Sequence record: MT596505.1
Length of the DNA stretch: 64,000 nt
Strand: one strand, 5' to 3'
Source: Staphylococcus phage vB_SepM_BE08
A program made the translations under genes and the position numbers. Each line of letters begins with the position of its first letter. Within the stretch, counting starts at the first letter, position 1. The notes under the pieces were generated by a model. That model searched no databases. It saw only the letters and a program-made list of their open reading frames with translations, and was not told the DNA's origin. Of the stretch, positions 1-42,668 are shown piece by piece.

Positions 1-2424
1 TACAGATGTAATTGTTCTATTCTCATCGTATTGGAATGATTGTGCTAAAGGGTCTACTAAGTTAACAGTTACTCGTGTTTTAAATATAATCTCAGTTGTT
101 GTTTTCTTACGACCATGTGCTGAATAAGTAGCTGTACTTGTAGAATTAGCATTTTTCAATGTTACCTCTCTATTACCGCATCTAATACCTGGTGGTATTG
201 TAAATGTACCTTTAGCTGTACCTTTAGCATCTGACATAATAGTTCCTGGTTCTGAACCTTTTCTATATCCTGATGCTGGAGTAATAGGTGCTCTTACACC
301 ATCAAACAATAAATATAAGTTATTATCGTTAGGACTTAATCCTTTAACAGTAAACGTTACATCTTTTTGTCTGATGAACTCAATCATTTCTTCTAATGTT
401 TTTCTACCGCCAGATTCTAAAATAGTACCTGTTCTACCATGTTTAGTATCATAAGACCATGATTTACCAGCCCACTTTTGACCTTTATCTAACTGTAAGT
501 TAGAATATAGGTAATGTTCTGTCTCATTGTAGTTAGTTCCACCGTGTCTCCAGAATCTGTTCATTGTATACTTTTTAGTTTTTCGTTTAGTAATAGTAAT
601 GTTTTCTTGCTCTATCCAGTTATCCTCACTAGGTTTAATTTTCATTACACCTTGTTTATTAGGGATATTATACGGGTTAACGTTTAAAGTTTCTGAAGCT
701 TGTGGTTGTCTTATTGTTGCTTCTTCTGTAAATGGTGCTGTAATTAATCTACCCCAAATTTTAGCTGTAGAACTATCTAAAATAGTAGGTTGATTAACTT
801 GTTCTGTATATGACAATGTAGCTTCTGCGTCTTCAAAACTAAATGATACACCAAAATCTGGATGAGTAATATCTGATTTATCTAGTGAGATAAACCCTTC
901 ACTAAAAACTGAACGTAATGTTAATGGGTTTTGTCCTTCCATTGCCTCATCGTCTAAAGCATTTACAGCTTGGTTATACTCTAAGTTCTCAACTCGTGTT
1001 TTAACGTTTTGTAAGTCTTCCATAGAAAGTCTTGTAATTGCATAAGTTAAACACTCTGCTGAATCTGAATTAGGTAACACAGTTACTGTACCTAATTGTA
1101 AAACTTCAGGGTCAGTAGCTGTTGGAGGCATTACTAAACGCATAATATTAGGTTCACCTTTAACCGTTGTTATTTCTCCAAATCGGTCTAAAATTACTGC
1201 GTCTTTACGTGCTAAATAATACGTGTAGTCTACTAATACAACGGATTGGTCTGTAGGTTTAACCCCTCCTGATGTATCAAAATTGATAAACCATTTTTCT
1301 CCTAGACCTTCTCCTTGTGTAGTTACTGTGTAATCTGTTCCTTTTTCCATTTTCTTGTTATATTTATATGATACATAGTAACTAGTACCACCATCAGGTT
1401 CTGCTCCTCCTGGAGACCAATCAATAGATTGTCCGTCAACTAATCTATAATCTTCACCTTGTTTATATTCTTTAGTAGTTTGTCCTGGTGATGTTTCAGT
1501 CCATACTCTAACTACTTCAAATGCTGTATTATTTGATAAGTAGTCTAAACTATCTCCTGTTGAACCTCTTGTAACACGCTCTTTGTCAACTAGAACTTGT
1601 CCTGTTACTCTATTAATATCTTTAACAGGTGAGTTAGCTAAACTAATACTTCCAGTTGATTTATTAAATATAGTACTTTCATTTTCAGCTTTACCTAAAT
1701 CAAATGACTTTTCAACATTGAGTCGTGTTGATGTTGGCTTGTTTACTTGCCAACCTTTAACATACGCTTTACCTGCGTCTACTACTATTGACACATGCTC
1801 ATCATCTACTGCATTACCTTCTGAAAATAATTCAAAACCACTAACTTTATATGAACCTGATTCATCATAAGTACGTTCAGCTAAAACTTTATTAATTTTA
1901 TCCATTTCTGGATTATTAGATTTAACAAATAATTGACCGTCTAAAAACGTATATATTGTTGCTGACGTAGGGTCATTTAAAGTTAAAATGATTTTCTCTT
2001 CTAATCGGTCTGCACCTTTAGAAAAATAACTAGGAACCCCGCTTGTTTGGTCTAATAGAGAGTAATCTTCATCTGGAGTGATAACTCTCTCTTCTATTTT
2101 CATTCCTACATACTCTTTACCTACACCAGTTAATCTTACTGTCTCATCAGAATCATAGTATCTAATTTTACCGTTTAAATAAACGTAACCTGGATTAACT
2201 GATAATATATTTTCATTTGTTAATGTGAACCCTAATCCTGATTGTTTGTCACCATCTTTAAATATAGAGTCTCCTAAATTTTTAAGATAATATGTTGAAA
2301 TAGATTGAAGCTCATTTAATTCTGCTTGTTGTAATGGTCTATCAGGATTAAATAAGACTCTGGTTCTATTTTGAGATGGTTCAAATCTATCTAGGTAAGG
2401 GGATACTTTAAAATTTACGACCAT
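1..2424 (-). CDS. large distal tail / adsorption-associated structural protein, N-terminal part (>800 aa; continues past the window start)
   Basis: Uninterrupted minus-strand frame from ATG at 2424 (MVVNFKVSPYLDRFEPSQNRTRVLF...) to the window edge. It is absent from the ORF track only because it has no stop in the window. It sits distal to the baseplate genes; the plus ORFs 599..793 and 1583..1870 lie antisense inside it. Confidence 0.6.
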   Translation of the reverse strand, partial: MVVNFKVSPYLDRFEPSQNRTRVLFNPDRPLQQAELNELQSISTYYLKNLGDSIFKDGDKQSGLGFTLTNENILSVNPGYVYLNGKIRYYDSDETVRLTGVGKEYVGMKIEERVITPDEDYSLLDQTSGVPSYFSKGADRLEEKIILTLNDPTSATIYTFLDGQLFVKSNNPEMDKINKVLAERTYDESGSYKVSGFELFSEGNAVDDEHVSIVVDAGKAYVKGWQVNKPTSTRLNVEKSFDLGKAENESTIFNKSTGSISLANSPVKDINRVTGQVLVDKERVTRGSTGDSLDYLSNNTAFEVVRVWTETSPGQTTKEYKQGEDYRLVDGQSIDWSPGGAEPDGGTSYYVSYKYNKKMEKGTDYTVTTQGEGLGEKWFINFDTSGGVKPTDQSVVLVDYTYYLARKDAVILDRFGEITTVKGEPNIMRLVMPPTATDPEVLQLGTVTVLPNSDSAECLTYAITRLSMEDLQNVKTRVENLEYNQAVNALDDEAMEGQNPLTLRSVFSEGFISLDKSDITHPDFGVSFSFEDAEATLSYTEQVNQPTILDSSTAKIWGRLITAPFTEEATIRQPQASETLNVNPYNIPNKQGVMKIKPSEDNWIEQENITITKRKTKKYTMNRFWRHGGTNYNETEHYLYSNLQLDKGQKWAGKSWSYDTKHGRTGTILESGGRKTLEEMIEFIRQKDVTFTVKGLSPNDNNLYLLFDGVRAPITPASGYRKGSEPGTIMSDAKGTAKGTFTIPPGIRCGNREVTLKNANSTSTATYSAHGRKKTTTEIIFKTRVTVNLVDPLAQSFQYDENRTITSV

Positions 2425-2444
2425 TCAATATGCTTCCTTTCTTA

Positions 2445-2966
2445 TTAAACTTCAATAATACATCTCTCTTTAGCTGTTGTAGTTTCCGTTCTGTTTTGGA
2501 ATTGTTTGTTCTCAAAATACATTAAAGTTCCTGTTTCTTTTACTTCACTTGGTAATAGGTTAGGTTTACTTACGCCACTATTAGGAACTAAGTCAATAAC
2601 GAAACCAATTTGTCTATACGTTCCTAATGGTAATTCATTACCTACAACATCTGCTTCAAGATAAACCCATTTAGCTCCTTCATCTTTAGCATTTTCTGTA
2701 GTAACTACTACCCAATCTTTATTACCGTAAGATATTTTTTCTTTATCATCATCTTGTGGTGACTGTGATGGTCTTACTAATGTTGCTCTATGTGTTTTCT
2801 TATATCCAATTATTTCCTGCAATGAAGTCGTTTTCTCGTCTGGTTGTGGTGGGTTAGTTTCACTAGACCACGGTGTTGTACGACCTACTACTAAATAAGT
2901 AGAATTAGCTTTACTAACTAAGTATTTTGCTAACTCTACATGTGAATTATACGTTGCTATAGCCAT
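2445..2966 (-). CDS. virion structural protein of the baseplate/tail-fiber module, function unknown
   Basis: 173-aa ORF in the late operon, directly downstream of a strong promoter (3046..3074) and a conserved leader. Confidence 0.45.
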
Positions 2967-3045
2967 ATTTATTATTTCCTTTCATATTAAGGTTTATCAT
3001 ATTCATAATTAATATAACAGATACTCTAGTTGTATCTTCTACATA

Positions 3046-3074
3046 ATTATATCACAAATTAGTAAAAAATACAA
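3046..3074 (-). promoter_or_regulatory. sigma-A-type promoter (minus strand): -35 TTGTAT, 17-nt spacer, extended -10 TGtgaTATAAT
   Basis: Read directly on the minus strand. Followed by a conserved 23-nt leader element (3001..3023) that is also present at 21949..21971. Confidence 0.55.
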
Positions 3075-3089
3075 CTAAAGATTTAAATT

Positions 3090-5744
3090 TTATTTAATTT
3101 CTACTAAACTTATTTTATTAATCTTAAGTGCTTCATTTATATTAGAATCTGTATATATTTTTACAGATTCATTTTTTCTAATAGAAGTTGTTTTAGCTGT
3201 AAATTCTTTTTCCAATAATCCTTGTGATTTGTCAATCTCTGCTGGATAGAATACTACTTCACTCATACCTGTGTTTGTATTTACAACGTTAACTGTTGTT
3301 ACTTCTGGTGATAATTCTCCTAAAATAGTTACTTTATATTTATGTCCGCTTATAATAGGTTGCTCTAGCTCATATTTAGCTCCGTTTATATAAGATACTA
3401 TCTGAGGTATATTACTATCTTTCAATATATTTACAGTTTCCCTAGGTGCCAAACTTATTTCAGTTTCAAAGAAATTAACTTTAGGATTAGTATCTACATA
3501 ATAACTTGAATCTGTAAATTGTAACTCAGATAACTCATCTAATGTTCTAGCTGAACCTAATCTTAAATCTTCTACATATTTAAGTTTAGAATAATCAATA
3601 TCATCTAATGAAGTATACGTATTTATATCTAATACAGTAGATTTAATAATTTCTCCACTTGATGAATCTATAATACCGTTGTTAGTGTCACTAATAACTT
3701 TTAATGTATCTAAGATTACAGAATACTCAGTATCCATATTAGTCCATAATGCATTAAAATAACCTATAGGCATAGTACTTACATTTTTCTCCCCTATTAA
3801 ATCTCTAATAGGAATTGTATTAATAGAACTTAAGAGAACTTCTGACATAGGTGTTATATCTGAGTAATTTACAAATTTAAGTCCATATAAATCTACTACT
3901 TTATTAGATATGGTTGTTTCTACCTCATTATCCTTTGAGTAATCTATTTTAGTTACAGTTTCCCAGTTCTTACCATCTTCAGAAATCATAATGTATAAAT
4001 CAGGATTAGGTGCATGCGTCACTTCAATTTTAAAATCTTGTATGTCAGTTCTAACACCGTTAAATTTATATATCTTCTCTATAAGGTTGTGCTTATCTGT
4101 ATCTACATTATATCCCTGTCTATACTTTTCTTCAATAGAAGAATAGCTACTTATAATTATAGAGTGCTCTAAATTATTTATATAACTATTTACTGTTTCA
4201 GTATCAGTTAAATACTTAGAGTTTCCATAGATTTCTTGTGGATTTAAATCAATACTCTTATTATCTGTAACTTTTATATACTGCACCTTTTTGTATGATG
4301 GTTGTGATATTATATCTCCATTAGTAGGACTAAATACTTTATAAGCTTCTACATAAAACATACTTTGAATTTCATCATAAAGTTTAACTACAGGAGTATA
4401 AGGATGTATTGTATATACTCCTGGTTCATAATGGTAGAATACCATATCTAAATAGTTTATGTCAAGTGTTACTTCATCATCGTAACCATAAACTTGTAAT
4501 CTAGTAAACATATTTAAATCATCATTTAAATAATCATTTAAATAACCTATACTAAAATCATAATCTTTCTCATAAAAAGAAACAGAATCATAATTTATTG
4601 TATTCCATCTATTTCTATCAAAATCATATATTTGTAGAACAATATTAACGTAATCATTTGGTGGTAAGACAGCTTTCAATGTTAATTTAAAATCAACCTG
4701 ACCTATATAATCAGAAGTCTCTCTTTTAGTTTTGTTTAATAGTACAGGTTTTGTTTTGAGTAAATACTCTCTTATATTAAAATTATTATAAATATACTCT
4801 ATACCCGTATTAGAATTAAATGTTACAGGTATACTAACATTATTTTTTTCATTAGTGTGTAAATAAAAATCAGTACTTAATTCTTCACTTTTATTTTTTA
4901 ATTCTGAAATTATATTTGCTACGGAAGAATTATATTGTGGTGTGTAATTATATGAAGACTTAATACTAACATTATTAAATATTCTCCCTACATTAGAAGA
5001 ACCCGTTAATACGTCTTCACTATTGATTAAACTTTTATTATTAATAAATACAGATTTATAATTAAGACTATCTGTTTTTCTTAATCCTAAATTAATATGT
5101 CCGTATAATAATTCATCATACCCATAGAAATTGGTAATATCTTCATACATTTCTACTTTCATGCTACCATTTAACCATTGATATATTAAGCTACCGTTAT
5201 TAGTAGCCCCGCCATCATAAGTTACATACAATTTAACTCCAGCTGGTTTAAATTCATTTATAATATCTATAATCTCTAAAGGGAAATAATTACCTATTGT
5301 AACATTAATAACTGCAAATCTATAATAGTAACCCATTAATTTGTCATTGCCATTTAATTCAGATTTATTAGTATAAAAAATATTTTTAAATGGTTCATAG
5401 ATACTAATATTAAGGTCATCTCTATCTAAGTAATACTTAATACCTTCAATAATAGCATTATTCGTACCTCTTTTTAAAAGTAAGTATTTAATGATTCTTT
5501 GTCTATATTTATCATCTTCCTCATCTACTTTACGATATACACCAAACCAATCTCCAAATTTATCTAAATACGTTCCTGTAGCACTTTTTAAAGAAGATTG
5601 TAACTTACTCTCAATTGTATCTCTCTCTACCGTATTTAACTCTTCATTTAAAGTGTTTAGTAGTATATAGTTTGTATCTTCATTAAGATTTTTATCTTTT
5701 TTTCTTCTTAATAATGGATGTAAGTTTTTCAAAAAACTACTCAA
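3090..5744 (-). CDS. large baseplate / tail-fiber-like structural protein (884 aa)
   Basis: Long, Asn/Tyr-rich ORF in the baseplate region, downstream of a baseplate-J-like gene. This is typical of myophage baseplate-attached fibre or wedge proteins. Confidence 0.5.
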   Translation of the reverse strand: MSSFLKNLHPLLRRKKDKNLNEDTNYILLNTLNEELNTVERDTIESKLQSSLKSATGTYLDKFGDWFGVYRKVDEEDDKYRQRIIKYLLLKRGTNNAIIEGIKYYLDRDDLNISIYEPFKNIFYTNKSELNGNDKLMGYYYRFAVINVTIGNYFPLEIIDIINEFKPAGVKLYVTYDGGATNNGSLIYQWLNGSMKVEMYEDITNFYGYDELLYGHINLGLRKTDSLNYKSVFINNKSLINSEDVLTGSSNVGRIFNNVSIKSSYNYTPQYNSSVANIISELKNKSEELSTDFYLHTNEKNNVSIPVTFNSNTGIEYIYNNFNIREYLLKTKPVLLNKTKRETSDYIGQVDFKLTLKAVLPPNDYVNIVLQIYDFDRNRWNTINYDSVSFYEKDYDFSIGYLNDYLNDDLNMFTRLQVYGYDDEVTLDINYLDMVFYHYEPGVYTIHPYTPVVKLYDEIQSMFYVEAYKVFSPTNGDIISQPSYKKVQYIKVTDNKSIDLNPQEIYGNSKYLTDTETVNSYINNLEHSIIISSYSSIEEKYRQGYNVDTDKHNLIEKIYKFNGVRTDIQDFKIEVTHAPNPDLYIMISEDGKNWETVTKIDYSKDNEVETTISNKVVDLYGLKFVNYSDITPMSEVLLSSINTIPIRDLIGEKNVSTMPIGYFNALWTNMDTEYSVILDTLKVISDTNNGIIDSSSGEIIKSTVLDINTYTSLDDIDYSKLKYVEDLRLGSARTLDELSELQFTDSSYYVDTNPKVNFFETEISLAPRETVNILKDSNIPQIVSYINGAKYELEQPIISGHKYKVTILGELSPEVTTVNVVNTNTGMSEVVFYPAEIDKSQGLLEKEFTAKTTSIRKNESVKIYTDSNINEALKINKISLVEIK

Positions 5745-22023: not shown

Positions 22024-22317
22024 TTACTTTTCCAAGTTTTTTGTATACTCTACAATTTCTTCTAGCCCTTGTTTAATACCTTCTTTATTATGTAGTAAAT
22101 AATCATAATATTCTTGTAAAGAATCATAGTACTTATAATCAATAGTAAGTACTTCTTGTCCTTTGATATATTTACGAGTTATCTTTTCAACCTTTTTAAC
22201 TGATTCTTTAAAAATATCTAAAATACTATTTACTTTAATTGCATCATATTTACTATTACCTTCTGGGAAATCTTTTAATTCTTTTTCCATTTCAAATCTT
22301 ACTTGTGTTAATTTCAT
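22024..22317 (-). CDS. hypothetical protein
   Basis: 97-aa ORF. Confidence 0.35.
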   Translation of the reverse strand: MKLTQVRFEMEKELKDFPEGNSKYDAIKVNSILDIFKESVKKVEKITRKYIKGQEVLTIDYKYYDSLQEYYDYLLHNKEGIKQGLEEIVEYTKNLEK

Positions 22318-22382
22318 TTAAATCAATCTCCTTTAATTATTTATAAGTTTATTATATCTTCTCTTTATTAGTTTGTCAACAT

Positions 22383-22580
22383 TTACATGTAAAAAATTAC
22401 GATAATCCAATATGGTATATTAGTAATAATCCATGCAATAATTAATCCAATAGAAATACCATAATACTTACTTACGTCTCCTCTATCTTTATTAATAATT
22501 GTAAACGATATTAATACTATGTTAGATACAATAATAATAAGTACATTCAGAATAATAAAATAAATTTCTATTAACTCCAT
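22383..22580 (-). CDS. small membrane protein
   Basis: 65 aa, two hydrophobic helices. Confidence 0.35.
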   Translation of the reverse strand: MELIEIYFIILNVLIIIVSNIVLISFTIINKDRGDVSKYYGISIGLIIAWIITNIPYWIIVIFYM

Positions 22581-22584
22581 ATAA

Positions 22585-23046
22585 TCACCTTTTAATAATT
22601 TTTAAACTCTCATCGTAATAACTTAAATCTAATGTTTTATGACTATCATGTGTTTTATTATAATACACTGTAATTATCTTACCTGTTTGAATTTCTATTA
22701 CACAGTATTGATAACATACTTGATTTTCTACTGTGACAATTTCTGGATGTCTAACTAATACTCTTTTATATGTATTTTCACCTAAGACTGTTTCATTATA
22801 TTCTATAATATTATCTAAATTAAAACTATCTGAATAAATCATACCTTTTAATTTTCCTAAGTTAAGGAATGTTTTAAGTTTATCTTTAGTGTGTTTTGTT
22901 AAAATGAACTTATCATTAATCATCAAAGAATACTGTAATAAATTTTTACAATGAAGTAATTCTTGTGTACTCATTTGATTTATATGTTTCTTTCTTTGTC
23001 TACTTTTACAAGTTGTTCTTCTTTCTGAATAAAATGTTTTAGTCAT
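22585..23046 (-). CDS. hypothetical protein
   Basis: 153-aa ORF. Its ATG overlaps the stop of a 35-aa ORF (TAATG). Confidence 0.4.
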   Translation of the reverse strand: MTKTFYSERRTTCKSRQRKKHINQMSTQELLHCKNLLQYSLMINDKFILTKHTKDKLKTFLNLGKLKGMIYSDSFNLDNIIEYNETVLGENTYKRVLVRHPEIVTVENQVCYQYCVIEIQTGKIITVYYNKTHDSHKTLDLSYYDESLKIIKR

Positions 23047-23153
23047 TAATAATCATCTCTTTTCTTATGTTTTATTTTTCTAGTATATTTAGTCTTATCT
23101 TTTTTAACTTGAGTATATGGTTTGATATGCCATGTTACTCTTGTCTTACTCAT
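23046..23153 (-). CDS. small basic protein (35 aa)
   Basis: ATGAGTAAGACA...TAA; overlaps the downstream start. Confidence 0.3.
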   Translation of the reverse strand: MSKTRVTWHIKPYTQVKKDKTKYTRKIKHKKRDDY

Positions 23154-23169
23154 CTTACCAATACTTTTT

Positions 23170-23328
23170 CTATTTGTCAAGATATTTCTTCCTTTCTTTT
23201 TGTAAATCTTTTTTTAATTCTGTTCTTGATTTACGTTTCATTATTTTCTTAAAATTACCTTTAGTTGTAGGATAATCGTAATAATGAAACATATTATAAC
23301 CTTTAATTTTTGCTTGTCTATTATTCAT
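23170..23328 (-). CDS. small basic protein (52 aa)
   Basis: RBS AAGGAGAG 7 nt upstream of the ATG. Confidence 0.35.
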   Translation of the reverse strand: MNNRQAKIKGYNMFHYYDYPTTKGNFKKIMKRKSRTELKKDLQKERKKYLDK

Positions 23329-23375
23329 GTATTTCTCTCCTTAATTATAATTTAACCCTTGATTATTGTCAAGGG

Positions 23376-24662
23376 TTATTTAAAACTCTGAATGTAATCT
23401 ATATAGCTTATACTACTCAGTGTTTCTTCTTGTTCTTCTTTGGTAGCTTCTCTAATAGTATATCCTTTAACAGTTTTATACTTACCCTTAACACAACCTA
23501 CTACATTAGCTTTAGGTAGACCGTACTCTGAAAATAACATTTGTAAAGGTAACTTTATTACTTCATTACCTTTCTTAGCTACATATACTTTAATACGTTT
23601 ATCAGTTATAGTTTTAGCCTTCTCAGAAAAATCTTCATCCTCGTATCTCCATAAATAACCACAACATGTTTTTCTAGTACCTGTAACACATGCTCTAATA
23701 CCTGATGATTTTAATCCTAGATTTAAAAAATAATCTTGTGCTTCTTTTAAAGTAGTAAATCTAATTTCTTCTAAGGTTTTTACATTTAAACCTACTACAT
23801 TTTTAAACCTCTTTTGAACTCCTCTTCTTTTCATTAATCCTTTTATATTACCAACACTCATGTTAAACTTATCAGATGTTTCTTGTGCTGTATGATTTAA
23901 ATAATACTCTATAATATCTTTCTCATTATCTTTATACTTAGTAAATAACTCTATATTATTTGTATACTCTAATTCTACATTTAAAAAATCTTGTATTTTA
24001 TTAAAAATATTAAATTTATCTTCATTAGGATACTCTATATATAATAACTTAATATTATTTTCTATGCAATATATTTTCTTTATTTCATCTAATTCTTGAA
24101 TTTCTTTTAATGGTTTACTCCAAGAACCTGTTGCTTGTTTAAAATGCTGTTCTCCCATATACTCAATTGCATACTTGGATTCTTCTAATTCTATATAAAA
24201 ATCGAGTCTTTGAGGTCTTTTTAGTCCTGTATTGATAGATTTTTCACAAATAAAATTTATGTTATTCTCTTTAAGTATTGTTTGTATAATTCTTTCCCCT
24301 ATACTCTTCATATTATCTTTAGGACAATTTAAGTTCTTATTATTTTCAAAACTATTCCAAATTACATCCCACTCGTTCCCTTGAGGAGATAATAATAAAC
24401 ATCTTGATGTAGTGTACAAATTTTTTGGATATTCTAATACCTTATACCCTCTGCTTTGTGCGTATGTATCAAAATACATCTTCTTACCTTCATCTGTAAG
24501 AATTTTTATTGTTTTATTTTTATCTTTTAAAATATTATTACGAGTTAATTCACATTCACATCCTTTAAACTTACCTTCAATTACAGTACCTATATATTTA
24601 CTTCCTTGTTTCCTCTTAAGTATTATACCTTTATCTAAAGCTAATTTTTTTATATCTTCCAT
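23376..24662 (-). CDS. intron-associated homing endonuclease: DUF559/Vsr-like nuclease core followed by tandem NUMOD-like DNA-binding repeats
   Basis: Core motif RLDFYIELEESKYAIEYMGEQHF. The C-terminal half has three repeats of the type GIRACVTGTRKTCCGYLWRY. It has its own promoter-like TTGACA-17-TATCAT and an AGGAGG RBS at 24665..24720, and it follows the tail-tube intron. Confidence 0.6.
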   Translation of the reverse strand: MEDIKKLALDKGIILKRKQGSKYIGTVIEGKFKGCECELTRNNILKDKNKTIKILTDEGKKMYFDTYAQSRGYKVLEYPKNLYTTSRCLLLSPQGNEWDVIWNSFENNKNLNCPKDNMKSIGERIIQTILKENNINFICEKSINTGLKRPQRLDFYIELEESKYAIEYMGEQHFKQATGSWSKPLKEIQELDEIKKIYCIENNIKLLYIEYPNEDKFNIFNKIQDFLNVELEYTNNIELFTKYKDNEKDIIEYYLNHTAQETSDKFNMSVGNIKGLMKRRGVQKRFKNVVGLNVKTLEEIRFTTLKEAQDYFLNLGLKSSGIRACVTGTRKTCCGYLWRYEDEDFSEKAKTITDKRIKVYVAKKGNEVIKLPLQMLFSEYGLPKANVVGCVKGKYKTVKGYTIREATKEEQEETLSSISYIDYIQSFK

Positions 24663-24689
24663 ATATTATCCTCCTAAAATTAAGTATAA

Positions 24690-25154
24690 CTTATGATACC
24701 ATATCATTTGTATTTTGTCAAGATAAATAGACCAAGAAATCAATCTCGGTCTACTAAATAGTAATGATTACGCTTTATCTGATGCGGTTAAATATGAAAA
24801 CGATTTATTTATTTACAAACGCTACTTTGTAAACCTGTGTCAATTCACATGCACTAGCTTTCACTACGTGGCTAGACTATTTGTTATCCCTAATTATTAG
24901 GGTAAGGATTTTTCTTCTCCCAATTACTTGGAGCTTTACTTCCGTCTTGTAACGGAATAGTCGTTGAACGTTTTCCTTAGGAATTACTTTCCCTTAGGAC
25001 TTTCGATGCTATACACCCATTACCTCAGTACTTAGGTTTTAACCTTATACCATCTTAACCATTTTTTCTACTTTCGTAACCTTCTAGTTTATTGTTTCCA
25101 ATTCCTATGTGGTTGGTTAAGCTTTAGAAGTTTCATAGCAATTAACCCTTCACT
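24690..25154 (-). mobile_element. group I intron at the 3' end of the tail tube gene (boundaries approximate)
   Basis: P7 5' strand UCAACGACUAUUCC and P7 3' strand AAAUAGUCUAGCC. Long blocks are shared with the tape-measure intron (for example CGAAAGUAGAAAAAAU and GGUUAAAaCCUAAG). The region is GC-enriched. Confidence 0.6.
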
Positions 25155-25577
25155 TCAGCAAATTACTTTACTAAAGGAGTTATTATTCTCAATTTCTTCT
25201 GTTACTATTTCATTAGTTCTCCATTCTTCATTGTAGTTATTAGCACTACAGCCATGGTAACTGATAATCACTTGTTTAGTTAAATTATCAATAACAAGAA
25301 TGTCGATAATATCTTTCTTAAGAATTTCTTCACCTAGTGAAGCATATCCTAATTTTGCAAAGTTTTCTTTTTTCATACGTAAACGTTCTACTGTTAACGT
25401 ACCTTCATATTTTAAGTAAACGTGTTCTTGTGGCATGATTGAACCAATTTCATACACACCAGTAGTTCCGTATTCACGTCTACCACTTGCTGATTGTGCT
25501 CTTCCTACTGGTTTACCTTTAATATACAACAATACGGTATTACCAGTATGGACTGTTTGTTTAGCTTGTGATGCCAT
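25155..25577 (-). CDS. tail tube protein
   Basis: 140 aa, immediately downstream of the sheath gene. Its size matches the ~142-aa tube protein of Twort/K-like phages. The C-terminal residues and stop may be altered by splicing of the adjacent intron. Confidence 0.7.
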   Translation of the reverse strand: MASQAKQTVHTGNTVLLYIKGKPVGRAQSASGRREYGTTGVYEIGSIMPQEHVYLKYEGTLTVERLRMKKENFAKLGYASLGEEILKKDIIDILVIDNLTKQVIISYHGCSANNYNEEWRTNEIVTEEIENNNSFSKVIC

Positions 25578-25636
25578 TTAATTCACTCTCCTATATTTTA
25601 TATAGAGGAGCCATTAGGCTCCTCAATAGAGCCTAA

Positions 25637-27421
25637 TTAGGCTTGTAATGCTTGTTGTTTATAAACAAGACTTACAGAAATTTTCTTAATGCTTCTGATA
25701 GGGTAAATAGTTAATGAGATTCTAGCTTCTTTACCTTCGATAATAACTTGTACATCTTCTGGTGGGAAGTCTTGAATTTCATTGTCACGTTTCTTACGTT
25801 CTAGGTAAGAGATTACAAAGTCTTTCATAATTGAAGCACTTGTATTAATTGTTCGTGTACCAATGAACTCATCTTCTAATTCTCTCTTCAATTCAGAAAC
25901 TAAGAAGTCATTAGCTTCCCCTACAGCCATTTCTGACTTAATAGGGTCAGACATGTCATTGTAAGTAGTTACGTCTTCTACAATACGGAAGTTTGTAACA
26001 GTTCTATTACGAACAAACTCGATACTAATAATACCATTTTCATTTAATTCATCTAGGTCAGTAGAATCATAAATGTTATCTAAACCATTGACATGCAAGT
26101 GTTTAAATGTAATTGATTCTCCGATACCTAAACCTGAAGCTAGACCTGCTACAGCACTTGCTACCATGTAAGCTGGTGCATGCAATTTACGACCATTTTC
26201 CATACCTAAAGTAGCACTGTTAGCGATTAGAGATACTCGAGGATTCATTAATGAAGAAGCTCTTCCATAAAGTTTTTCTTTATGTTCTGCTATTCCTCCA
26301 CCTACTATAGCTCTCATAGGTTCCCCTGCATCTGAACGTTCTCTAACAAAGTGAGCTACTTCTGCATGTACAGATTCACGAGAAGATAATGGTACGATAT
26401 AGTATCCACCTAAGTGAGCAAATTTCTCGAATTTATCAGCCCAGCTTGTAGGCTCTTCTCCGTTAGTACCACCTTCAAGTTTAGTTAACTCGAAAGGTTC
26501 AATAGTTTTAAATTTTGCACCTTCTTCTGTTGTTGCTGTTACTGTGGCATTGTCTTCTCCAGCATCTACTGTTACATCACTTGAATTAGATACGTCTTCT
26601 GGTACTCGTTCAAAATGAATTAAACCATTATATTCAGTTTGTTTTTGTAAGTCACCAAAAATAGCTGTTACATAAGCACCTTTATCTGTAACATCTAAAT
26701 CTTCTACTGGGTCAAGTAATGTACTTTCAATGTTTTTATCTCCAAAAGGTGATAACTTAGCTTCAAAGTCTGGTAGTTGATTAATATCCGTAATAACTTC
26801 GTTAGTGTATTTATATAAACCACCACTTAGGTCATACGATTTAACAACATTATCTCCAACTTTTAATACTAGACTTTCAGCTTTTTGTGTTTCATCATCA
26901 TGGATTACAGAAACAGTAGCTTTAGGCTCTTCACCAGTATATTTAACTGTAAAGATATTACCAATGTTGTCATAAACTTCATTAAATCTGTCGTTTTCAA
27001 AAATCAAACGCAAACGTAATGATTTACTTAAGTTGTTTTTCTCTAGAGCTACTTGAATATTATTAGACGCATTACCGTAAATATCTGATACGATACGTAA
27101 ACCGCCTTTTTCAACAGATGCTGGCTTAGCGTCTTCTACACGCATTGCAAAAATTTGACCTGCTGTGTAGTTAGGATTAGAACCCCAAGCTAATTCAATA
27201 GCGTCTAAAAGCTCACCTGAACGGAAAGTACGTTTTGCTTGTGAATAGTTACGTAATTTATAAACTTGGTTAGGTTCCCCGCCTTCAGCTTTACCAATTA
27301 ACATTAAAGTTTTTTCACTGGCACTTGCTGAACCGCCGATACCTGATGAATCTACTTCAATAGTAGCATGAGGTCTCGTAATAGGTCTACGTGGGAATAC
27401 TTCTTTATAATCATTTGCCAT
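25637..27421 (-). CDS. tail sheath protein
   Basis: 594 aa, Gly/Ala-rich C-terminal half, in the position expected for the contractile sheath. Confidence 0.8.
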   Translation of the reverse strand: MANDYKEVFPRRPITRPHATIEVDSSGIGGSASASEKTLMLIGKAEGGEPNQVYKLRNYSQAKRTFRSGELLDAIELAWGSNPNYTAGQIFAMRVEDAKPASVEKGGLRIVSDIYGNASNNIQVALEKNNLSKSLRLRLIFENDRFNEVYDNIGNIFTVKYTGEEPKATVSVIHDDETQKAESLVLKVGDNVVKSYDLSGGLYKYTNEVITDINQLPDFEAKLSPFGDKNIESTLLDPVEDLDVTDKGAYVTAIFGDLQKQTEYNGLIHFERVPEDVSNSSDVTVDAGEDNATVTATTEEGAKFKTIEPFELTKLEGGTNGEEPTSWADKFEKFAHLGGYYIVPLSSRESVHAEVAHFVRERSDAGEPMRAIVGGGIAEHKEKLYGRASSLMNPRVSLIANSATLGMENGRKLHAPAYMVASAVAGLASGLGIGESITFKHLHVNGLDNIYDSTDLDELNENGIISIEFVRNRTVTNFRIVEDVTTYNDMSDPIKSEMAVGEANDFLVSELKRELEDEFIGTRTINTSASIMKDFVISYLERKKRDNEIQDFPPEDVQVIIEGKEARISLTIYPIRSIKKISVSLVYKQQALQA

Positions 27422-37983: not shown

Positions 37984-38770
37984 TATCACCTACAAAATTT
38001 TGAACTTCTTTTTTAGTCATTAAATATCTATCTTTAACTTTTTTAAAACCTAGATAATCTATATAATTAATAGCTTCTTTTAATTGTATATCATATATAG
38101 ATATTGCCATTTCATTATCTATACCTAGTTTTATAAGTTCAAATATAGAACGTAATCCTACTCCGCTAGATTCTGGTGAACTAATATATGATTCTAATTT
38201 TATTTCTTTGTCATATAAATTATATTCTGCTATACCTATAACATCCTCACCGTTATTGAATACTTTATAAATAGAAGATGTTTCTTTTAAATGAGATGTA
38301 TTTACACCTTTATTTTTAAGTATAGACAAAGATGTAGCTAATCTTTCTGGATTTACTTTTTCATTTATACCACCATTATCTTCAACTGAAGAACCTATAG
38401 CTGAGTTATTATTAGTTTCAGGTTGTTTATCTTGTTGCTCTTTATCTTTTGAATTTCCGTCTTCGTAAATAGTCATTTCTACTTCTTTGCCGTTTCTAAT
38501 TACTTTACGTTTAACTTTATTCAAATTAGATAAATCTTTATCTCCGCCTTTGGTTATTTTTTCAGTATTTGATTTACAAAACAATACCATATCATAAAAG
38601 CTATTAAAACCATTTGGTTTGTATAAATGTTTATATTTTTTGTTTAATGTTTCTTCGTTATTAATAACTTCATCAAAACTAAAATATTTACCTGTAAGAA
38701 AGTATAGATTATTTTCATCCATACTTTCATTATCTTTTTTCATTATATCATAAATAAACTCATTTGTCAA
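37967..38770 (-). CDS. hypothetical protein
   Basis: 267-aa ORF downstream of terminase exon 3. Confidence 0.35.
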   Translation of the reverse strand: MTNEFIYDIMKKDNESMDENNLYFLTGKYFSFDEVINNEETLNKKYKHLYKPNGFNSFYDMVLFCKSNTEKITKGGDKDLSNLNKVKRKVIRNGKEVEMTIYEDGNSKDKEQQDKQPETNNNSAIGSSVEDNGGINEKVNPERLATSLSILKNKGVNTSHLKETSSIYKVFNNGEDVIGIAEYNLYDKEIKLESYISSPESSGVGLRSIFELIKLGIDNEMAISIYDIQLKEAINYIDYLGFKKVKDRYLMTKKEVQNFVGDNDVFV

Positions 38771-38783
38771 ATTAAATCACTAC

Positions 38784-39702
38784 CTAATCTATATAATAGT
38801 TTGTATTACTATTTCCTGAATTATAATTAGTAGTAACAAAAGTAGAATTAAACGCTGTACCATTTCCTTGTTGTATTAACTGTTGTATTCGTGTTAATCC
38901 GATATTTGCATATACACTTGCCTGTGCCCAGTGGTCGTCACCTTTACGTTTAATTACTTGATACATTTCTTCTTTTTTCTCGTCTTCCTCATCCATAATT
39001 AAAACATTTTGCCAATGTTTTAAATATGTTCTAAGGTCATCATCTACTTCTTGATACATACGTATATTTTTTGTTTTTAGTCCTTGGATATAAATCTTAT
39101 TTTGCATAAGCTTATCAACAGTTACCGTATTATCTTTTTCATTAAATTTAGGTCGTAACTGTCCTGTAGAACGTGGACTGGAATTGTAAGTACATCCAAA
39201 AACTTTATCTTCTCCGAAATGGTTTATAAGTTTTAGGACATTATTACCGCTATCCCCATTATCTGCTATAATAATGTCTGGTTCATATTTAGAAATTTCC
39301 CATATAATTGTTTCTAAATCAGCTTCAACCATATTAGGTCTTGTGTTTTTCTTAACAGAAAATAATCTTATTAAATCTTTTTTACCATCAGGCAATACAC
39401 CGTGAACTGTAACCCAGTGGTGATTTCCCCAATCAATTCCTACAGAAATATAAGAATAATTACCTCTGTTAAACATTTGTTTTTTAGCAACAGGTGATTT
39501 ATTTTCAAATACATCCTCTTCAAGAACACGCATTTTAACATCTTCATAAGGCATACCTAAAGAATAGTTATAAAATGCTTGCTTAGAATCTGTGTTCATT
39601 TCTTTTTCTACTAATTGGTCTGCTGAAATCCATACAGCGTTCATTTGAGATATATAATACCCTCTAATACCTGAATTATTTTTTGTTCGTTCAGGGTAAC
39701 GA
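38784..39702 (-). CDS. terL: terminase large subunit, exon 3 (nuclease domain)
   Basis: The frame stays open upstream of the annotated Met (…RYPERTKNNSGIRGYYISQ-MNAVW) with no start codon. The predicted 3' splice site follows GGGUAGUAAUUGGGGAAUG, which parallels intron 1. Confidence 0.7.
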
Positions 39703-41017
39703 CATTCCCCAATTACTACCCCTAGTTTCCTAGTATTTTAAAGGGTTTAGACTATATCATGACTACTTTTTTTGGTTAGTAGTCCCTTGCTTTACATTAC
39801 TTAACATTAATTCTATTTCTTCTTTAACACTATCAAAAGTGTATTTAGTATAAGGTATTTCTAGTAAATAAAAATTATTATTTTTAGAAAATTCCTTTTT
39901 AATTCTATCATTTTTTTGTTGTTTCAAAAAATATTCTTCTCCACCAAATAACTCTACAGGCTTATAATGTTGTTGACCTTGATACTCAATTAAAACATTA
40001 TATTCAGGTAAGTAAAAATCATAAGACAGATTATTTATATTTTTTAGACCTTTGAATTTTTTCTGAGCTTCAAAATTTATATCTAAAGAGTTTAGAACAG
40101 CCTCTACCAATTTCTCACCTCTAGAATAATTGCACTTAGGACATCTTCTACCTCTATAAAACATAAAAGGATAAACTGAATACTCATTACCACATGTATT
40201 ATGTCTTATCTTTACTTTATTTTTAACGCCTGTATACTCTCCTATTAAAGTATATTCACCTTGAGTTACATACTCAATTTCTTTTTTGTACTCTTCTGTT
40301 GTTTTTAAATTATCTTTAGATAACTTATTATTAAGACAACTCTTACATTGTGTACCACTTAATAATGAGTCAGGTCTAATATAATATTCTGAACCACAAG
40401 ATAAATGCTTGACTTTTACTTTATCATTCATGGTTTTATACTCAGTTAAAACTTGATATTTGTTACCATGAATATCTTGTACTTCTTTTAAGAACTGCTC
40501 ATGAGTTTTTCTTTTATTTTTACCTTTTTTAGTATCTGAACATCTTTTGCATTTACCACTTCTCAATAAATATTTAGCTACAGGTTCAAATTCATAACCG
40601 CAAATTTTATGTTTTACTTTGATACGTGAATTTATACCATTATAAGTACTTAAAAGAATAAATTCACTATTAAATTTATCATATAATTCACTTTTAAATT
40701 CTTCATGTGTTTTCTTTTTAGTCAATATATTTCCCTCCTTACCTATTATTTTAATATTTTAATGTTAAGTAATTTTTATCTAGTTCTCACTTATTCCTTT
40801 TAATAAGCTACCTAGAAATTTAGTCGTTAGGCTTTTACTATAATATAATTATATCATATATTGTTATTTTGTCAATAATTAAATTACAGATTTAGCACGG
40901 TTGGTTCCCACTGTCTGTGTATAGTCAGATTTAGGGTTTCTTACCAGTATATTATTTTTCTATACATTATTTTACTATGCCCGTTTAACAAGGTTTTAGG
41001 TATGCTAGAAAGTTAAC
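39703..41017 (-). mobile_element. group I intron 2 in terL, with an endonuclease ORF in the P8 loop (boundaries approximate)
   Basis: P7 5' strand CCUAACGACUAAAUUU and P7 3' strand AUAUAGUCUAAACC flank the ORF. Roughly 190 nt of its 5' half are ~85% identical to intron 1. Exons 2 and 3 are joined in frame. Confidence 0.65.
39763..40725 (-). CDS. intron-encoded homing endonuclease: three Zn-finger-like repeats plus a DUF559/Vsr-like nuclease core
   Basis: Three repeats of the type H-x2-CG-x-E-(x11-12)-C-x2-C. C-terminal core DFYLPEYNVLIEYQGQQHY, paralogous to the 23376..24662 ORF. TTG start with RBS GGTAAGGAGGG. Confidence 0.65.
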   Translation of the reverse strand: MTKKKTHEEFKSELYDKFNSEFILLSTYNGINSRIKVKHKICGYEFEPVAKYLLRSGKCKRCSDTKKGKNKRKTHEQFLKEVQDIHGNKYQVLTEYKTMNDKVKVKHLSCGSEYYIRPDSLLSGTQCKSCLNNKLSKDNLKTTEEYKKEIEYVTQGEYTLIGEYTGVKNKVKIRHNTCGNEYSVYPFMFYRGRRCPKCNYSRGEKLVEAVLNSLDINFEAQKKFKGLKNINNLSYDFYLPEYNVLIEYQGQQHYKPVELFGGEEYFLKQQKNDRIKKEFSKNNNFYLLEIPYTKYTFDSVKEEIELMLSNVKQGTTNQKK

Positions 41018-41690
41018 ACACCATTATACCATCTATCTAAAGGTTTACCACATTTTTGACATACATATTGGTATGTTCCATCTTGTACTGTTTTTGCTTG
41101 TTCATCAATACCTTCAGGATTAACCAATAATAAGTTACCACTTTGTTCTAAATTATTCTCATCATAAGGAGCATATTTCATCTCGTTATGATAATCACAA
41201 TGTTGACAAACATGTGCATAGTACCATTGGTCTGATTGTTGATATAATTTATGAATACCTACACCTGGAGCTGAAGGTGTTGAGAATCTTCTAACAATGT
41301 GTAATGGTGAACTTGACATAGATTCAAGTGCTGATGATTCAGCAAGTGAGTTAACACGTTCATATTCATCCATAGCTAAAAAGTCAATATCCACACCCTC
41401 AACTGAACCTGGTTTACTACTCGTTCTAAAGAATAGACTAGAGTTTCTTATTTGTTTATACCCTAAAGAATCTTTATCCCAATTTACTATATCTTTAAAA
41501 TATGATTTTTCTAAAACAGGATTAAGCCTTGACTGAACAAATTTCTTAAGTTGCTCTTGTGTTGGAAACGTATACAAACATTTTACATTTTTAAAACTAT
41601 ACATATCTGCAAAATGTACCATTTCCATTACACTCATCTCACTTAATCCAAGCTGACGTGACTTAATTACTGCTTTGTTAGGATGAGTAT
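41018..41690 (-). CDS. terL: terminase large subunit, exon 2 (ATPase: Walker A and B)
   Basis: The frame is open upstream of the annotated Met and includes the Walker A motif KSRQLGLSE. Walker B is DIDFLAMDEYERV. It ends in an in-frame stop inside intron 2. Confidence 0.75.
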
Positions 41691-42024
41691 CATTTCAATT
41701 ACTACCGTTACTTTCGTAATACTTTAACATTCATTTAAGAATCGGTTTAGACTATATCACAACCCTTATTTTTGGTTAAGGGTTCTCTGCTTTACGGAAT
41801 ATTATTCCTCTTATCTATTAAAATAGAAATTTAGTCGTTAGGCATTTACTATAATTCAATTATATCATACATTTTTATTTTGTCAATAATTAAATTATAG
41901 ACTTAGCACGGGATTGCCTCTATCCGTTAGGACTTAGGTTCTCTTACCAGCTTATTCATTATTCAGCTTTGCCCGTTTAACAGAGTTATTCAATACATAT
42001 TACTACATAAGGTCGCAAATAATT
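41691..42024 (-). mobile_element. ORF-less group I intron 1 in terL (boundaries approximate)
   Basis: P7 pairing CCUAACGACUAAAUUU / GAUAUAGUCUAAACC. A length of 334 nt joins the exon 1 and exon 2 frames across a UAU codon. Sequence is homologous to intron 2. Confidence 0.65.
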
Positions 42025-42238
42025 ATACGATTTTAACTTGCCAAGGTCTATGTGCTTGTGCTTTACTTCTATCTCTGTTAGGTATACTAAATGTAATAGG
42101 ATGTCCTCTAAGTGTATGATATTTCAACATATAAGTACTAGGATTAAGCATATTCAATATATGGTCTAACTGTTCTCTAGTAACTTTTTTAGTTTTAAAA
42201 GTTTCCTGTGTCATTTTTATTAACTCTTTACCATCCAT
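42025..42238 (-). CDS. terL: terminase large subunit, exon 1
   Basis: Strong AGGAGG RBS. The 71-aa ORF ends with a stop just inside the intron. The ATPase Walker A motif is only completed by exon 2. Confidence 0.6.
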
Positions 42239-42248
42239 AAATATCCTC

Positions 42249-42668
42249 CTAAAATGTTTCTGAGTTTTCTTGATTCATTACTTGCTCTTTTTCTGAAATC
42301 ATATTAGCTATATCGTCTGCTGATAACTCAGATAATTTTTGTAAATCTAGTTGATTACTTTCTTCACTATCACTATCTTGGTCTATAACATTTTCAAAGA
42401 GTTCTTGTTGTTTACCTGATATTTCAGGTATTGCTCCTCCACCTTCTGTAGTAGCTCCTGATAGTTCTTGCATTTGTGAGAATATAACAAAAAGCTTATA
42501 CAAATCATTAGGGTCTTTAACCTCTATTTGATTAGACTCTACTTTATTATTAAAGTCTATCATTAATTTTTGTATACTAGACATAAAACCGTCTGCTATC
42601 ATTTTTCTAGCGTCTTCTTGTTCTGATTTTTTCTTATTTACATTTGTTCTTATATCTTTAACTCCCAT
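42249..42668 (-). CDS. acidic protein immediately upstream of terL (small terminase subunit is one possibility)
   Basis: 139 aa. It overlaps the terL start; the position is typical of a small terminase subunit, but no motif supports this. Confidence 0.3.
   Translation of the reverse strand: MGVKDIRTNVNKKKSEQEDARKMIADGFMSSIQKLMIDFNNKVESNQIEVKDPNDLYKLFVIFSQMQELSGATTEGGGAIPEISGKQQELFENVIDQDSDSEESNQLDLQKLSELSADDIANMISEKEQVMNQENSETF

Follow-up and report, generated by a model that had tools for sequence, protein, structure and literature searches.

Is the large terminase subunit (TerL) of Staphylococcus phage vB_SepM_BE08 encoded by one gene or by three? We analysed a stretch of 64,000 nucleotides (nt) from this phage (record MT596505.1), hereafter the window, in which the list of open reading frames (ORFs) and tblastn place three TerL-coding segments on the minus strand, exactly within positions 38784-42238. 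It is highly probable that these segments are the exons of a single TerL gene interrupted by two related group I introns. An initial annotation of the sequence had proposed this arrangement, and it is borne out by exact in-frame joining of the exons, by P1 pairing and a terminal G in both introns, by covariation, by a match of intron 1 to the Rfam model RF00028 and by published introns. All features of the locus described below lie on the minus strand.

Exons and splice junctions

As a reference for the junctions we used TerL of Staphylococcus phage Stab23, which is annotated as a single unbroken coding sequence (CDS) of 605 amino acids (aa). A tblastn comparison of this protein with the window returned three blocks, corresponding to aa 1-71, 72-297 and 297-605. 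Exon 1 (42027-42238) runs from M1 to the first two bases of the V71 codon; read through unspliced, it continues as GTA followed by a TAA stop. Exon 2 (41016-41695, 680 nt) starts with base three of the V71 codon, ends with base one of the W298 codon and contains a Walker-A-like SRQLGLS motif and the GpA_ATPase domain. Exon 3 (38784-39709) supplies the other two bases of W298, continues through the stop codon and encodes the nuclease half of TerL. Intron 1 (41696-42026, 331 nt) is a group I intron of IA2-like architecture without an ORF, and intron 2 (39710-41015, 1306 nt) is a group I intron of the same family that lacks P2. The few ambiguous bases at the junctions were settled by the group I rule that the 5' exon ends in U and the intron in G.

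Joined in this way, the exons form an ORF of 1818 nt with an uninterrupted product of 605 aa. The initial annotation had suggested aligning the spliced protein to an intronless TerL; against Stab23 the two are colinear over residues 1-605, with 88% identity and one gap. Pfam PF05876 (GpA_ATPase) matches residues 79-290 of the spliced protein (1.8e-13), and the SRQLGLS motif resembles SRQLGKT, the Walker A sequence of T4 gp17. The predicted spliced product thus has both halves of a phage large terminase subunit (gpA/T4 gp17-like), the ATPase with its Walker A at the N terminus and the nuclease at the C terminus.

Colinearity with Stab23 TerL fixes the junctions (marked by hyphens) as QVKIV-NDTHPNK, with the V71 codon split GT-A, and YNGVW-ECRYPERT, with the W298 codon split T-GG. 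The junctions suggested at first, QVKIV-Y-THPNK and NGV-RYPERT, were off by one to three residues: the extra Y is absent, and WEC is not missing. At the nucleotide level the predicted spliced sequence is ...AAAATCGT joined to AAATGATACT... between exons 1 and 2, and ...AATGGTGTGT joined to GGGAATGTCG... between exons 2 and 3. Where TerL has no intron at the site of intron 2, for example in the phages PG-2021_23 and phiIPLA-C1C (C1C), the sequence around it reads ...GATGGTATAATGGTGTGTGGGAATGTCG...

The same data bear on two explanations that do without RNA splicing. The three pieces could be separate TerL polypeptides that assemble after translation, with a spacer and a free-standing endonuclease gene between them. 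Internal ATG codons are present in exons 2 and 3, and in the automatic annotations of the phages BE25, BE05 and C1C each piece is a 'terminase large subunit' CDS of its own. As the initial annotation had pointed out, however, the reading frames of exon 2, with its Walker-A-like motif (KSRQLGLSE), and of exon 3 are already open 5' of the first ATG; the sequence that precedes these ATGs, the motif among it, is conserved and coding but has no start codon. Moreover, the breaks split the V71 and W298 codons, the pieces rejoin exactly on the intronless sequence, and the spacers contain a covarying ribozyme core and a match to RF00028. We regard separate polypeptides as very improbable.

Another intervening element (an intein, a group II intron or a translational bypass) or an inactivated or mis-assembled gene is hardly credible at all. 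These are the generic alternatives for any split ORF and have no specific support here. An intein is excluded because in-frame stops directly follow each exon (TAA; ...LTF-TAG). For a group II intron, a reverse-transcriptase ORF is absent and Rfam gives no group II matches. The only well-studied translational bypass gap, that of T4 gene 60, is 50 nt, and inserts of 331 and 1306 nt are far above it. At the DNA level, the TerL exons of the window and of viable relatives agree to ~99%, and identical insert sequences occur in independently sequenced phages.

Structure of the introns

Both introns show the P1 pairing typical of group I: the upstream exon ends in a U, which forms a U.G wobble with a G of the internal guide sequence (IGS) at the 5' splice site. 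P1 reads UCGU(A)/(U)GCGA in intron 1 (IGS GCGA, 42016-42013) and GGUGUGU/GCAUACC in intron 2 (IGS GCAUACC, 41005-40999). At every other TerL site occupied in relatives, exon and guide sequence change together, and at the site aa65 the phages BE25 and SEP1 differ by a compensatory change of exon and guide (AGACCGU/GCGGUCU versus AGACCAU/GUGGUCU). The P1 finder used here was greedy, and five rows in which it chose implausible positions were excluded (SEP1 aa114, Twillingate aa297 and aa349, BE05 aa349 and SIOphi aa88). At the other end, both introns finish with ...GGUAGUAAUUG and a terminal G (41696 and 39710), and cleavage must follow this G because exact exon joining requires it. P10 candidates, read off the sequence alone, lie directly 5' of the guides: AUUU/AAAU in intron 1 (AUUU at 42020-42017) and UUUCU/GGGAA, with G.U pairs and one bulge, in intron 2. 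Both introns have a terminal omega-G together with a candidate P10 complement.

In intron 1, P2 (42009-41994) precedes P3 (41985-41981 with 41789-41785) and P4 (41976-41972 with 41912-41908); P6 (41900-41849) is a folding prediction only, P7 pairs 41836-41832 with 41754-41750, and P8 (41784-41761) and a P9 domain (41745-41705) complete the fold. Intron 2 has P3 at 40993-40989 with 39789-39785, P4 at 40984-40981 with 40900-40897, P6 at 40889-40838 (again by folding prediction only), P7 at 40825-40821 with 39754-39750, P8 at 39784-39761 and P9 at 39745-39719. P4 reads ACGGG/CCCGU in the introns. The P7 pairing GACUA/UAGUC, already noticed in both intervening segments by the initial annotation, lies in ...GCCUAACGACUAAA... 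and ...GAUAUAGUCUAAAC... of both introns, inside longer common blocks of 18 nt and 15 nt, each of which occurs exactly twice in the 64 kb against ~0.2-0.3 chance matches expected. An A-rich J3/4 and GNRA-capped P2 and P9 hairpins are also present.

Between P7 and the 3' strand of P3, at the position of P7.1 and P7.2 in Michel-Westhof subgroup IA, intron 1 has two predicted hairpins (P7.1, 41826-41815; P7.2, 41808-41796). In intron 2, the predicted P7.1 occupies 40815-40780, and the stem of P7.2 (40773-40767 with 39802-39796) carries the endonuclease ORF in its loop. The alignment to RF00028 handles this stretch of intron 1 as an insertion. The closing pairs of the hairpins, compared by eye, vary among relatives (CUAU/AUAG, CUAG/CUAG, ACUG/CAGU; GGAAU/AUUCC, GGAUU/AAUCC). 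The predicted hairpins fit the IA2-like type of phage intron. An insertion of P7.1 and P7.2 at this place is a feature of the classical IA2 introns of phages (Twort orf142 and nrdE; SPO1 DNA polymerase; T4 td, nrdB and sunY). In these introns, as in intron 2, a peripheral helix loops out the endonuclease ORF, which reaches with its 3' end into core sequence and has expression signals of its own. The ORF sits in P7.2 in intron 2 and in P6a in T4 td, and the endonuclease of intron 2, unlike those of classical IA2 systems, is neither GIY-YIG nor clearly HNH.

Covariation and searches against Rfam

We aligned the core segments of 38 distinct introns, taken from nine annotated phage records (the window included) and from IMG/VR contigs, and counted pairs for a specified structure; the controls were 3' partners slid by 1-3 columns and 500 shuffles, and the composite alignment of the cores leaves out P5 and P6. 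Standard pairing is found in 98.3% of cells, compared with 31-44% in the slid controls. Two-sided changes affect 21 of the 32 pairs, and none of the 500 shuffles reached the observed covariation score. Pairs changed on both sides make up 5/6 in P3, 4/5 in P4, 6/6 in P8 and 4/4 in the GAAA-capped terminal hairpin of P9; P9 covaries outside this hairpin as well. The long-range helix P3 alone occurs as CUCUG/CAGAG, CCUUG/CAAGG, CUCCG/CGGAG, CCUUUUC/GAAAAGG and other variants. The conserved core with its P3/P7 pseudoknot is present, with covariation in P3, P4, P8 and P9.

Several observations weigh against two group I introns that splice in this phage. P7 (GACUA/UAGUC) is invariant in the 38 introns and has no covariation of its own, because the pattern used to collect them contained P7. 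At the gathering threshold Rfam reports no group I match in the whole window, and at E<=10 it reports none in a 4-kb region. Searched alone against RF00028, intron 1 gives a full-length match (model positions 1-253, E=1.7e-4) whose helix assignment agrees with the specified structure, and its 25.1 bits are half of the gathering score of 50. Intron 2 searched alone has no Rfam match, because an ORF of ~960 nt splits its core. The P1 of intron 1 is short, at 4-5 base pairs (bp). Splicing of TerL in this phage is inferred from DNA, and some introns of related phages are spliced in vivo only and not in vitro (PMC11878797), so strict self-splicing cannot be assumed for those of the window.

The low Rfam scores have a ready counterpart. 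On RF00028, the three TerL introns of the Bacillus phage SIOphi, run as a control, score 73.2, 32.4 and 23.9 bits; SIOphi TerL transcripts splice, so sub-threshold scores are normal for this subfamily. Since intron 1 alone matches RF00028 and introns of the self-splicing SIOphi transcript also score below threshold, we do not read the silence of Rfam as evidence against an intron.

Proposed splicing of the TerL transcript

TerL of this Sepunavirus-like Staphylococcus myophage (Herelleviridae, Twortvirinae) would be transcribed as one pre-mRNA interrupted by two phage IA2-like introns, each folding into a P3-P9 core. The IGS would pair both with the last bases of the upstream exon (P1, with U.G where cleavage takes place) and with the first bases of the downstream one (P10). 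Exogenous guanosine would attack after the U at the 5' splice site; the exon released in this way would then attack behind the intron's final G, so that the exons are linked into the message for one 605-aa TerL. The endonuclease gene in the P7.2 loop would be translated from its own ribosome-binding site, probably from an early promoter of its own in P6, and its product may cut intronless TerL alleles of co-infecting phages, which would lead to intron homing.

For guanosine-dependent self-splicing, SIOphi serves as a proxy: splicing of its TerL transcripts, in which a homologous intron occupies the site of intron 2, was demonstrated in vitro as well as in vivo (PMC11878797). Intron 1 is also 100% identical to an intron of phage BE05; TerL is essential for packaging and BE05 is an isolated phage, so this copy must leave the transcript.

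The introns could be genuine and one or both of them non-autonomous, requiring a phage or host protein or special conditions, possibly with partial mis-splicing such as skipping of exon 2. In Bastillevirinae several introns of TerL, polymerase and ribonucleotide reductase genes are spliced only during infection and not in vitro, and the dominant SIOphi TerL product lacked an internal exon through skipping (PMC11878797). The short P1 of intron 1 and the identical GGUAGUAAUUG ending of both introns point the same way. We nevertheless think this rather unlikely: the core is complete, with GNRA loops and all helices, conserved and covarying; the P10 complements of the two introns differ; and exon 2 is 680 nt long, so its skipping would shift the frame and destroy TerL. 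Splicing of both introns to a single TerL remains the reading we prefer.

Known TerL introns in related phages

Introns at the two TerL sites of the window are already known, and the window adds one combination of alleles to that picture. In the phage collection, no record covers at least 80% of the TerL locus; the exact combination is, judging by these records, unsampled there, a trivial kind of novelty. GenBank annotates TerL as a join in Twort (MT151386, with intron-encoded proteins A and B) and in SEP1, and as 'interrupted by two introns' in Twillingate (MH321491). For SEP1, two group I introns were described in terL, 'not exclusive of SEP1' and present in other staphylococcal phages (PMC11265418); precise TerL introns were given for Quidividi, Terranova and Twillingate (PMC6597688). 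In fRuSau02 and MSA6 a TerL intron encodes I-MsaI, and mass spectrometry recovered peptides from both halves of TerL (PMC5618024).

The Sepunavirus phages Twillingate, C1C and BE05 carry an ORF-less intron at the identical V71 site, like intron 1 of the window, with identities to it of 100% in BE05 and 89% in C1C and Twillingate. Twillingate, like the window, also has an intron at the W298 site; unlike intron 2 it is ORF-less, 282 nt long and fitted with a different P4-P6 module. Twillingate and BE05 differ from the window in having further introns at aa182 and/or aa349, and in BE05 and C1C the TerL pieces are annotated as separate CDSs. The intron that encodes IepB in Twort agrees with intron 2 in its W298 site, its endonuclease family and its promoter-bearing P6 hairpin, although Twort belongs to another genus (Twortvirus), its exons are only ~75% identical in DNA, and its other TerL introns are at aa69 and aa87 rather than at aa71. 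SEP1 terL (gp001) shares genus, gene and intron family with the window and has two introns, whose sites, aa65 (with an endonuclease) and aa114, are not those of the window, so that the guide sequences differ. In SIOphi (Bastillevirinae), an intron interrupts the same TerL codon as intron 2 and aligns with 86% of the length of intron 1 at ~70% identity, and scores of SIOphi introns on RF00028 likewise fall below threshold; SIOphi differs in subfamily and host, in having three introns, in its short P6 hairpins without promoter motifs and in exon skipping.

We also searched Twort and Twillingate with the spliced TerL by tblastn. Four exon blocks were found in Twort (725-5368), leaving three intron-sized gaps at aa69, aa87 and aa297, and four in Twillingate (2563-5281), with gaps at aa71, aa297 and aa349. 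Both records indicate a three-piece join, and one small intron may have been handled differently or missed in each. The classic three-intron gene of Twort, orf142, was considered as TerL and rejected, as it encodes the tail tube protein (PMC11878797). The tail tube homologue of the window (25155-25577) is uninterrupted.

Relationship between the two introns

The initial annotation had seen ~190 nt of near-identical sequence in the two introns and had taken it as a sign of duplication and spread within the gene. The introns are related, and near-identity does not hold up: an alignment of their 5' cores spans 178 nt, 19 of them gap positions, at 78% identity, which exceeds 90% only over ~85 nt (intron 1 positions ~119-203), and a second block in the 3' part is 68% identical over 100 nt. 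Nor is a local duplication indicated, because the 5' core of intron 2 is far closer to introns of other phages than to intron 1. Its 5' core is 99.5% identical to the SEP1 intron at aa114, a different TerL site, 96-97% to the aa71 introns of C1C, Twillingate and PG-2021_23, and 94% to the Twort intron at aa297 (99% at the 3' end of the core), compared with only 77.5% to intron 1. The 3' part of intron 1, in turn, agrees at every position with the aa71 introns of C1C and Twillingate (100%) and at 97.6% with the aa349 intron of Twillingate; over its full length, intron 1 has an exact counterpart (100%) in the BE05 intron at aa71.

On these sequence comparisons, the introns of the window are not each other's closest relatives, and their likeness reflects a widespread, mobile and modularly recombining family rather than a duplication inside this gene. 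In the relatives examined the family occupies at least nine TerL sites (aa65, 69, 71, 87/88, 114, 182, 297/298, 349 and 392), and further members interrupt the genes for ribonucleotide reductase and DNA polymerase in phages of Listeria, Enterococcus, Bacillus, Brochothrix and Lactobacillus. The family seems to evolve through an exchange of modules (5' core, 3' core and guide sequence) from one insertion site to another, and intron 1 is probably a derivative of an ORF-bearing intron like that of PG-2021_23 at aa71.

Staphylococcus phage PG-2021_23 (MZ417325) is 100% identical to the window over a 3.4-kb stretch in the tail tube region (22300-25700 compared). The two differ at the TerL locus (38700-42300 of the window): in PG-2021_23 a single intron, with an ORF, sits at aa71 and the aa297 site is empty, and TerL of the window has the ORF-less aa71 intron, equal to that of BE05, and the ORF-bearing intron at aa297. 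This presence/absence polymorphism between phages identical over the one other compared stretch cleanly illustrates that introns can be gained, lost or exchanged within a short time.

Clusters of silent exon differences from the window lie near intron sites of other phages: at CDS nt 324-354 in SEP1, around its intron at nt 342; at nt 507-541 in BE25 and BE05, adjoining the intron site at nt 544; and at 942-953 and 1026-1053 in Twillingate, near its intron sites at nt 892 and 1047. These clusters look like co-conversion tracts or target-site immunity changes. Around the site of intron 2 in the window, a search for such a tract found only two window-specific silent changes (CDS 819 and 906), which are not decisive.

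The putative endonuclease encoded in intron 2

The ORF in intron 2 (39763-40725) encodes a putative homing endonuclease of 320 aa, with a TTG start and the Shine-Dalgarno sequence AAGGAGG at 40740-40734. Its last 14 codons overlap the 3' strands of P7.2 and P3 and P8 of the intron. The protein has three zinc-finger repeats of the Cys4 type and, at its C terminus, a nuclease-like domain (GE...DF...IEYQGxQH). Among 15 homologues from introns of the family, the Cys pairs of the three repeats are invariant and the C-terminal consensus is G-E...D-F...E-Y-x-G-x-Q-H, in which G203, D236, F237, E247, Y248, G250, Q252 and H253 are invariant and E204 nearly so. The homologues have three to four treble-clef zinc-finger repeats (DUF4379), and their C-terminal block E-Y-(D/Q)-G-x-Q-H resembles nucleases of the Vsr/DUF559/DUF2726 type. 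Candidate folds for this domain are Vsr/PD-(D/E)XK and HNH.

The protein matches PHROG 559 ('HNH endonuclease', 1.7e-80) and PHROG 9084 ('homing endonuclease', 3.4e-42). Searches with it found no Pfam family at E<=0.01 and nothing in NCBIfam or among PDB sequences, and a PDB search with a profile of the 15 relatives gave chance-level matches only. The Pfam matches of the 15 family members are the DUF4379 zinc finger (14/15), CapR (10), DUF2726 (5) and DUF559 (2), the last two weak and in relatives only; HNH families are absent from the 25 commonest. The HNH label given by PHROG 559 and GenBank to these intron endonucleases is probably a misnomer, since no HNH family is among their commonest Pfam matches and PHROG 559 proteins from TerL introns are listed as CATH 'VSR endonuclease' (PMC11878797).

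Elsewhere in the window, downstream of the tail tube gene, an ORF of 428 aa (23376-24662, minus strand) has a match to PHROG 7140 'intron encoded nuclease' (2e-128) and a weaker one to PHROG 559, the family of the endonuclease in intron 2. No intron core motifs were found around it, and DNA matches to more distant phages (Stab23 and others, ~78% identity) continue across the stretch, which suggests a homing-endonuclease-like gene that is not part of an intron. A short way downstream are two more of the perfect sigma-70 matches (23372-23344 and 22379-22351).

Promoter motifs in the P6 hairpins

The P6 hairpins of both introns contain a perfect match to a sigma-70-type promoter, TTGACA-16-TATAAT with TG at the extended -10 position: TTGACA-16-TGaTATAAT at 41859-41886 in intron 1, and a second at 40848-40875 in intron 2, ~120 nt upstream of the endonuclease start. 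The 64 kb hold seven perfect matches to TTGACA-N16-18-TATAAT, two of them these. Across related introns the hexamers in P6 are nearly invariant and the spacers vary. A promoter match is present in 11 of 18 ORF-bearing and 6 of 25 ORF-less introns of the family (Fisher p 0.03, indicative only, as the copies are non-independent).

The motif fits an early promoter specific to the endonuclease. Consistent with this, promoters were predicted ahead of intron-encoded genes in fRuSau02 (PMC5618024), and early terL reads were unexpectedly high in SEP1 (PMC11265418). It is quite possible, if not quite probable, that the extended P6 hairpin doubles as an early promoter for host sigma-70, yielding an unspliceable endonuclease-only mRNA. 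If so, expression of the endonuclease would be uncoupled from late transcription of TerL. The promoter in ORF-less derivatives such as intron 1 would then fire into exon 2 early in infection, which could account for the high early terL read counts of SEP1.

TerL belongs to a block of structural and packaging genes on the minus strand, with the small terminase subunit gene (42249-42668) upstream and genes for a virion structural protein and the portal downstream. A further perfect sigma-70 match, TTGACA-17-TGATATAAT (38742-38770), directly follows the TerL stop codon. Its TTG coincides with the start codon listed for the virion structural protein gene (from the ORF lister, and by position from the C1C annotation), so either this start codon or the promoter call may need revisiting.

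Implications for the annotation of TerL

TerL of Herelleviridae is a well-known hotspot for mobile group I introns. The main value of the present locus lies in its annotation: three 'terminase' fragments with small ORFs between them become one TerL, very probably spliced, and one putative intron-encoded endonuclease. The fragments are still listed separately in the GenBank records of the relatives BE05, BE25 and C1C, and since the curated Rfam threshold misses this intron subfamily, annotation pipelines will repeat the error.

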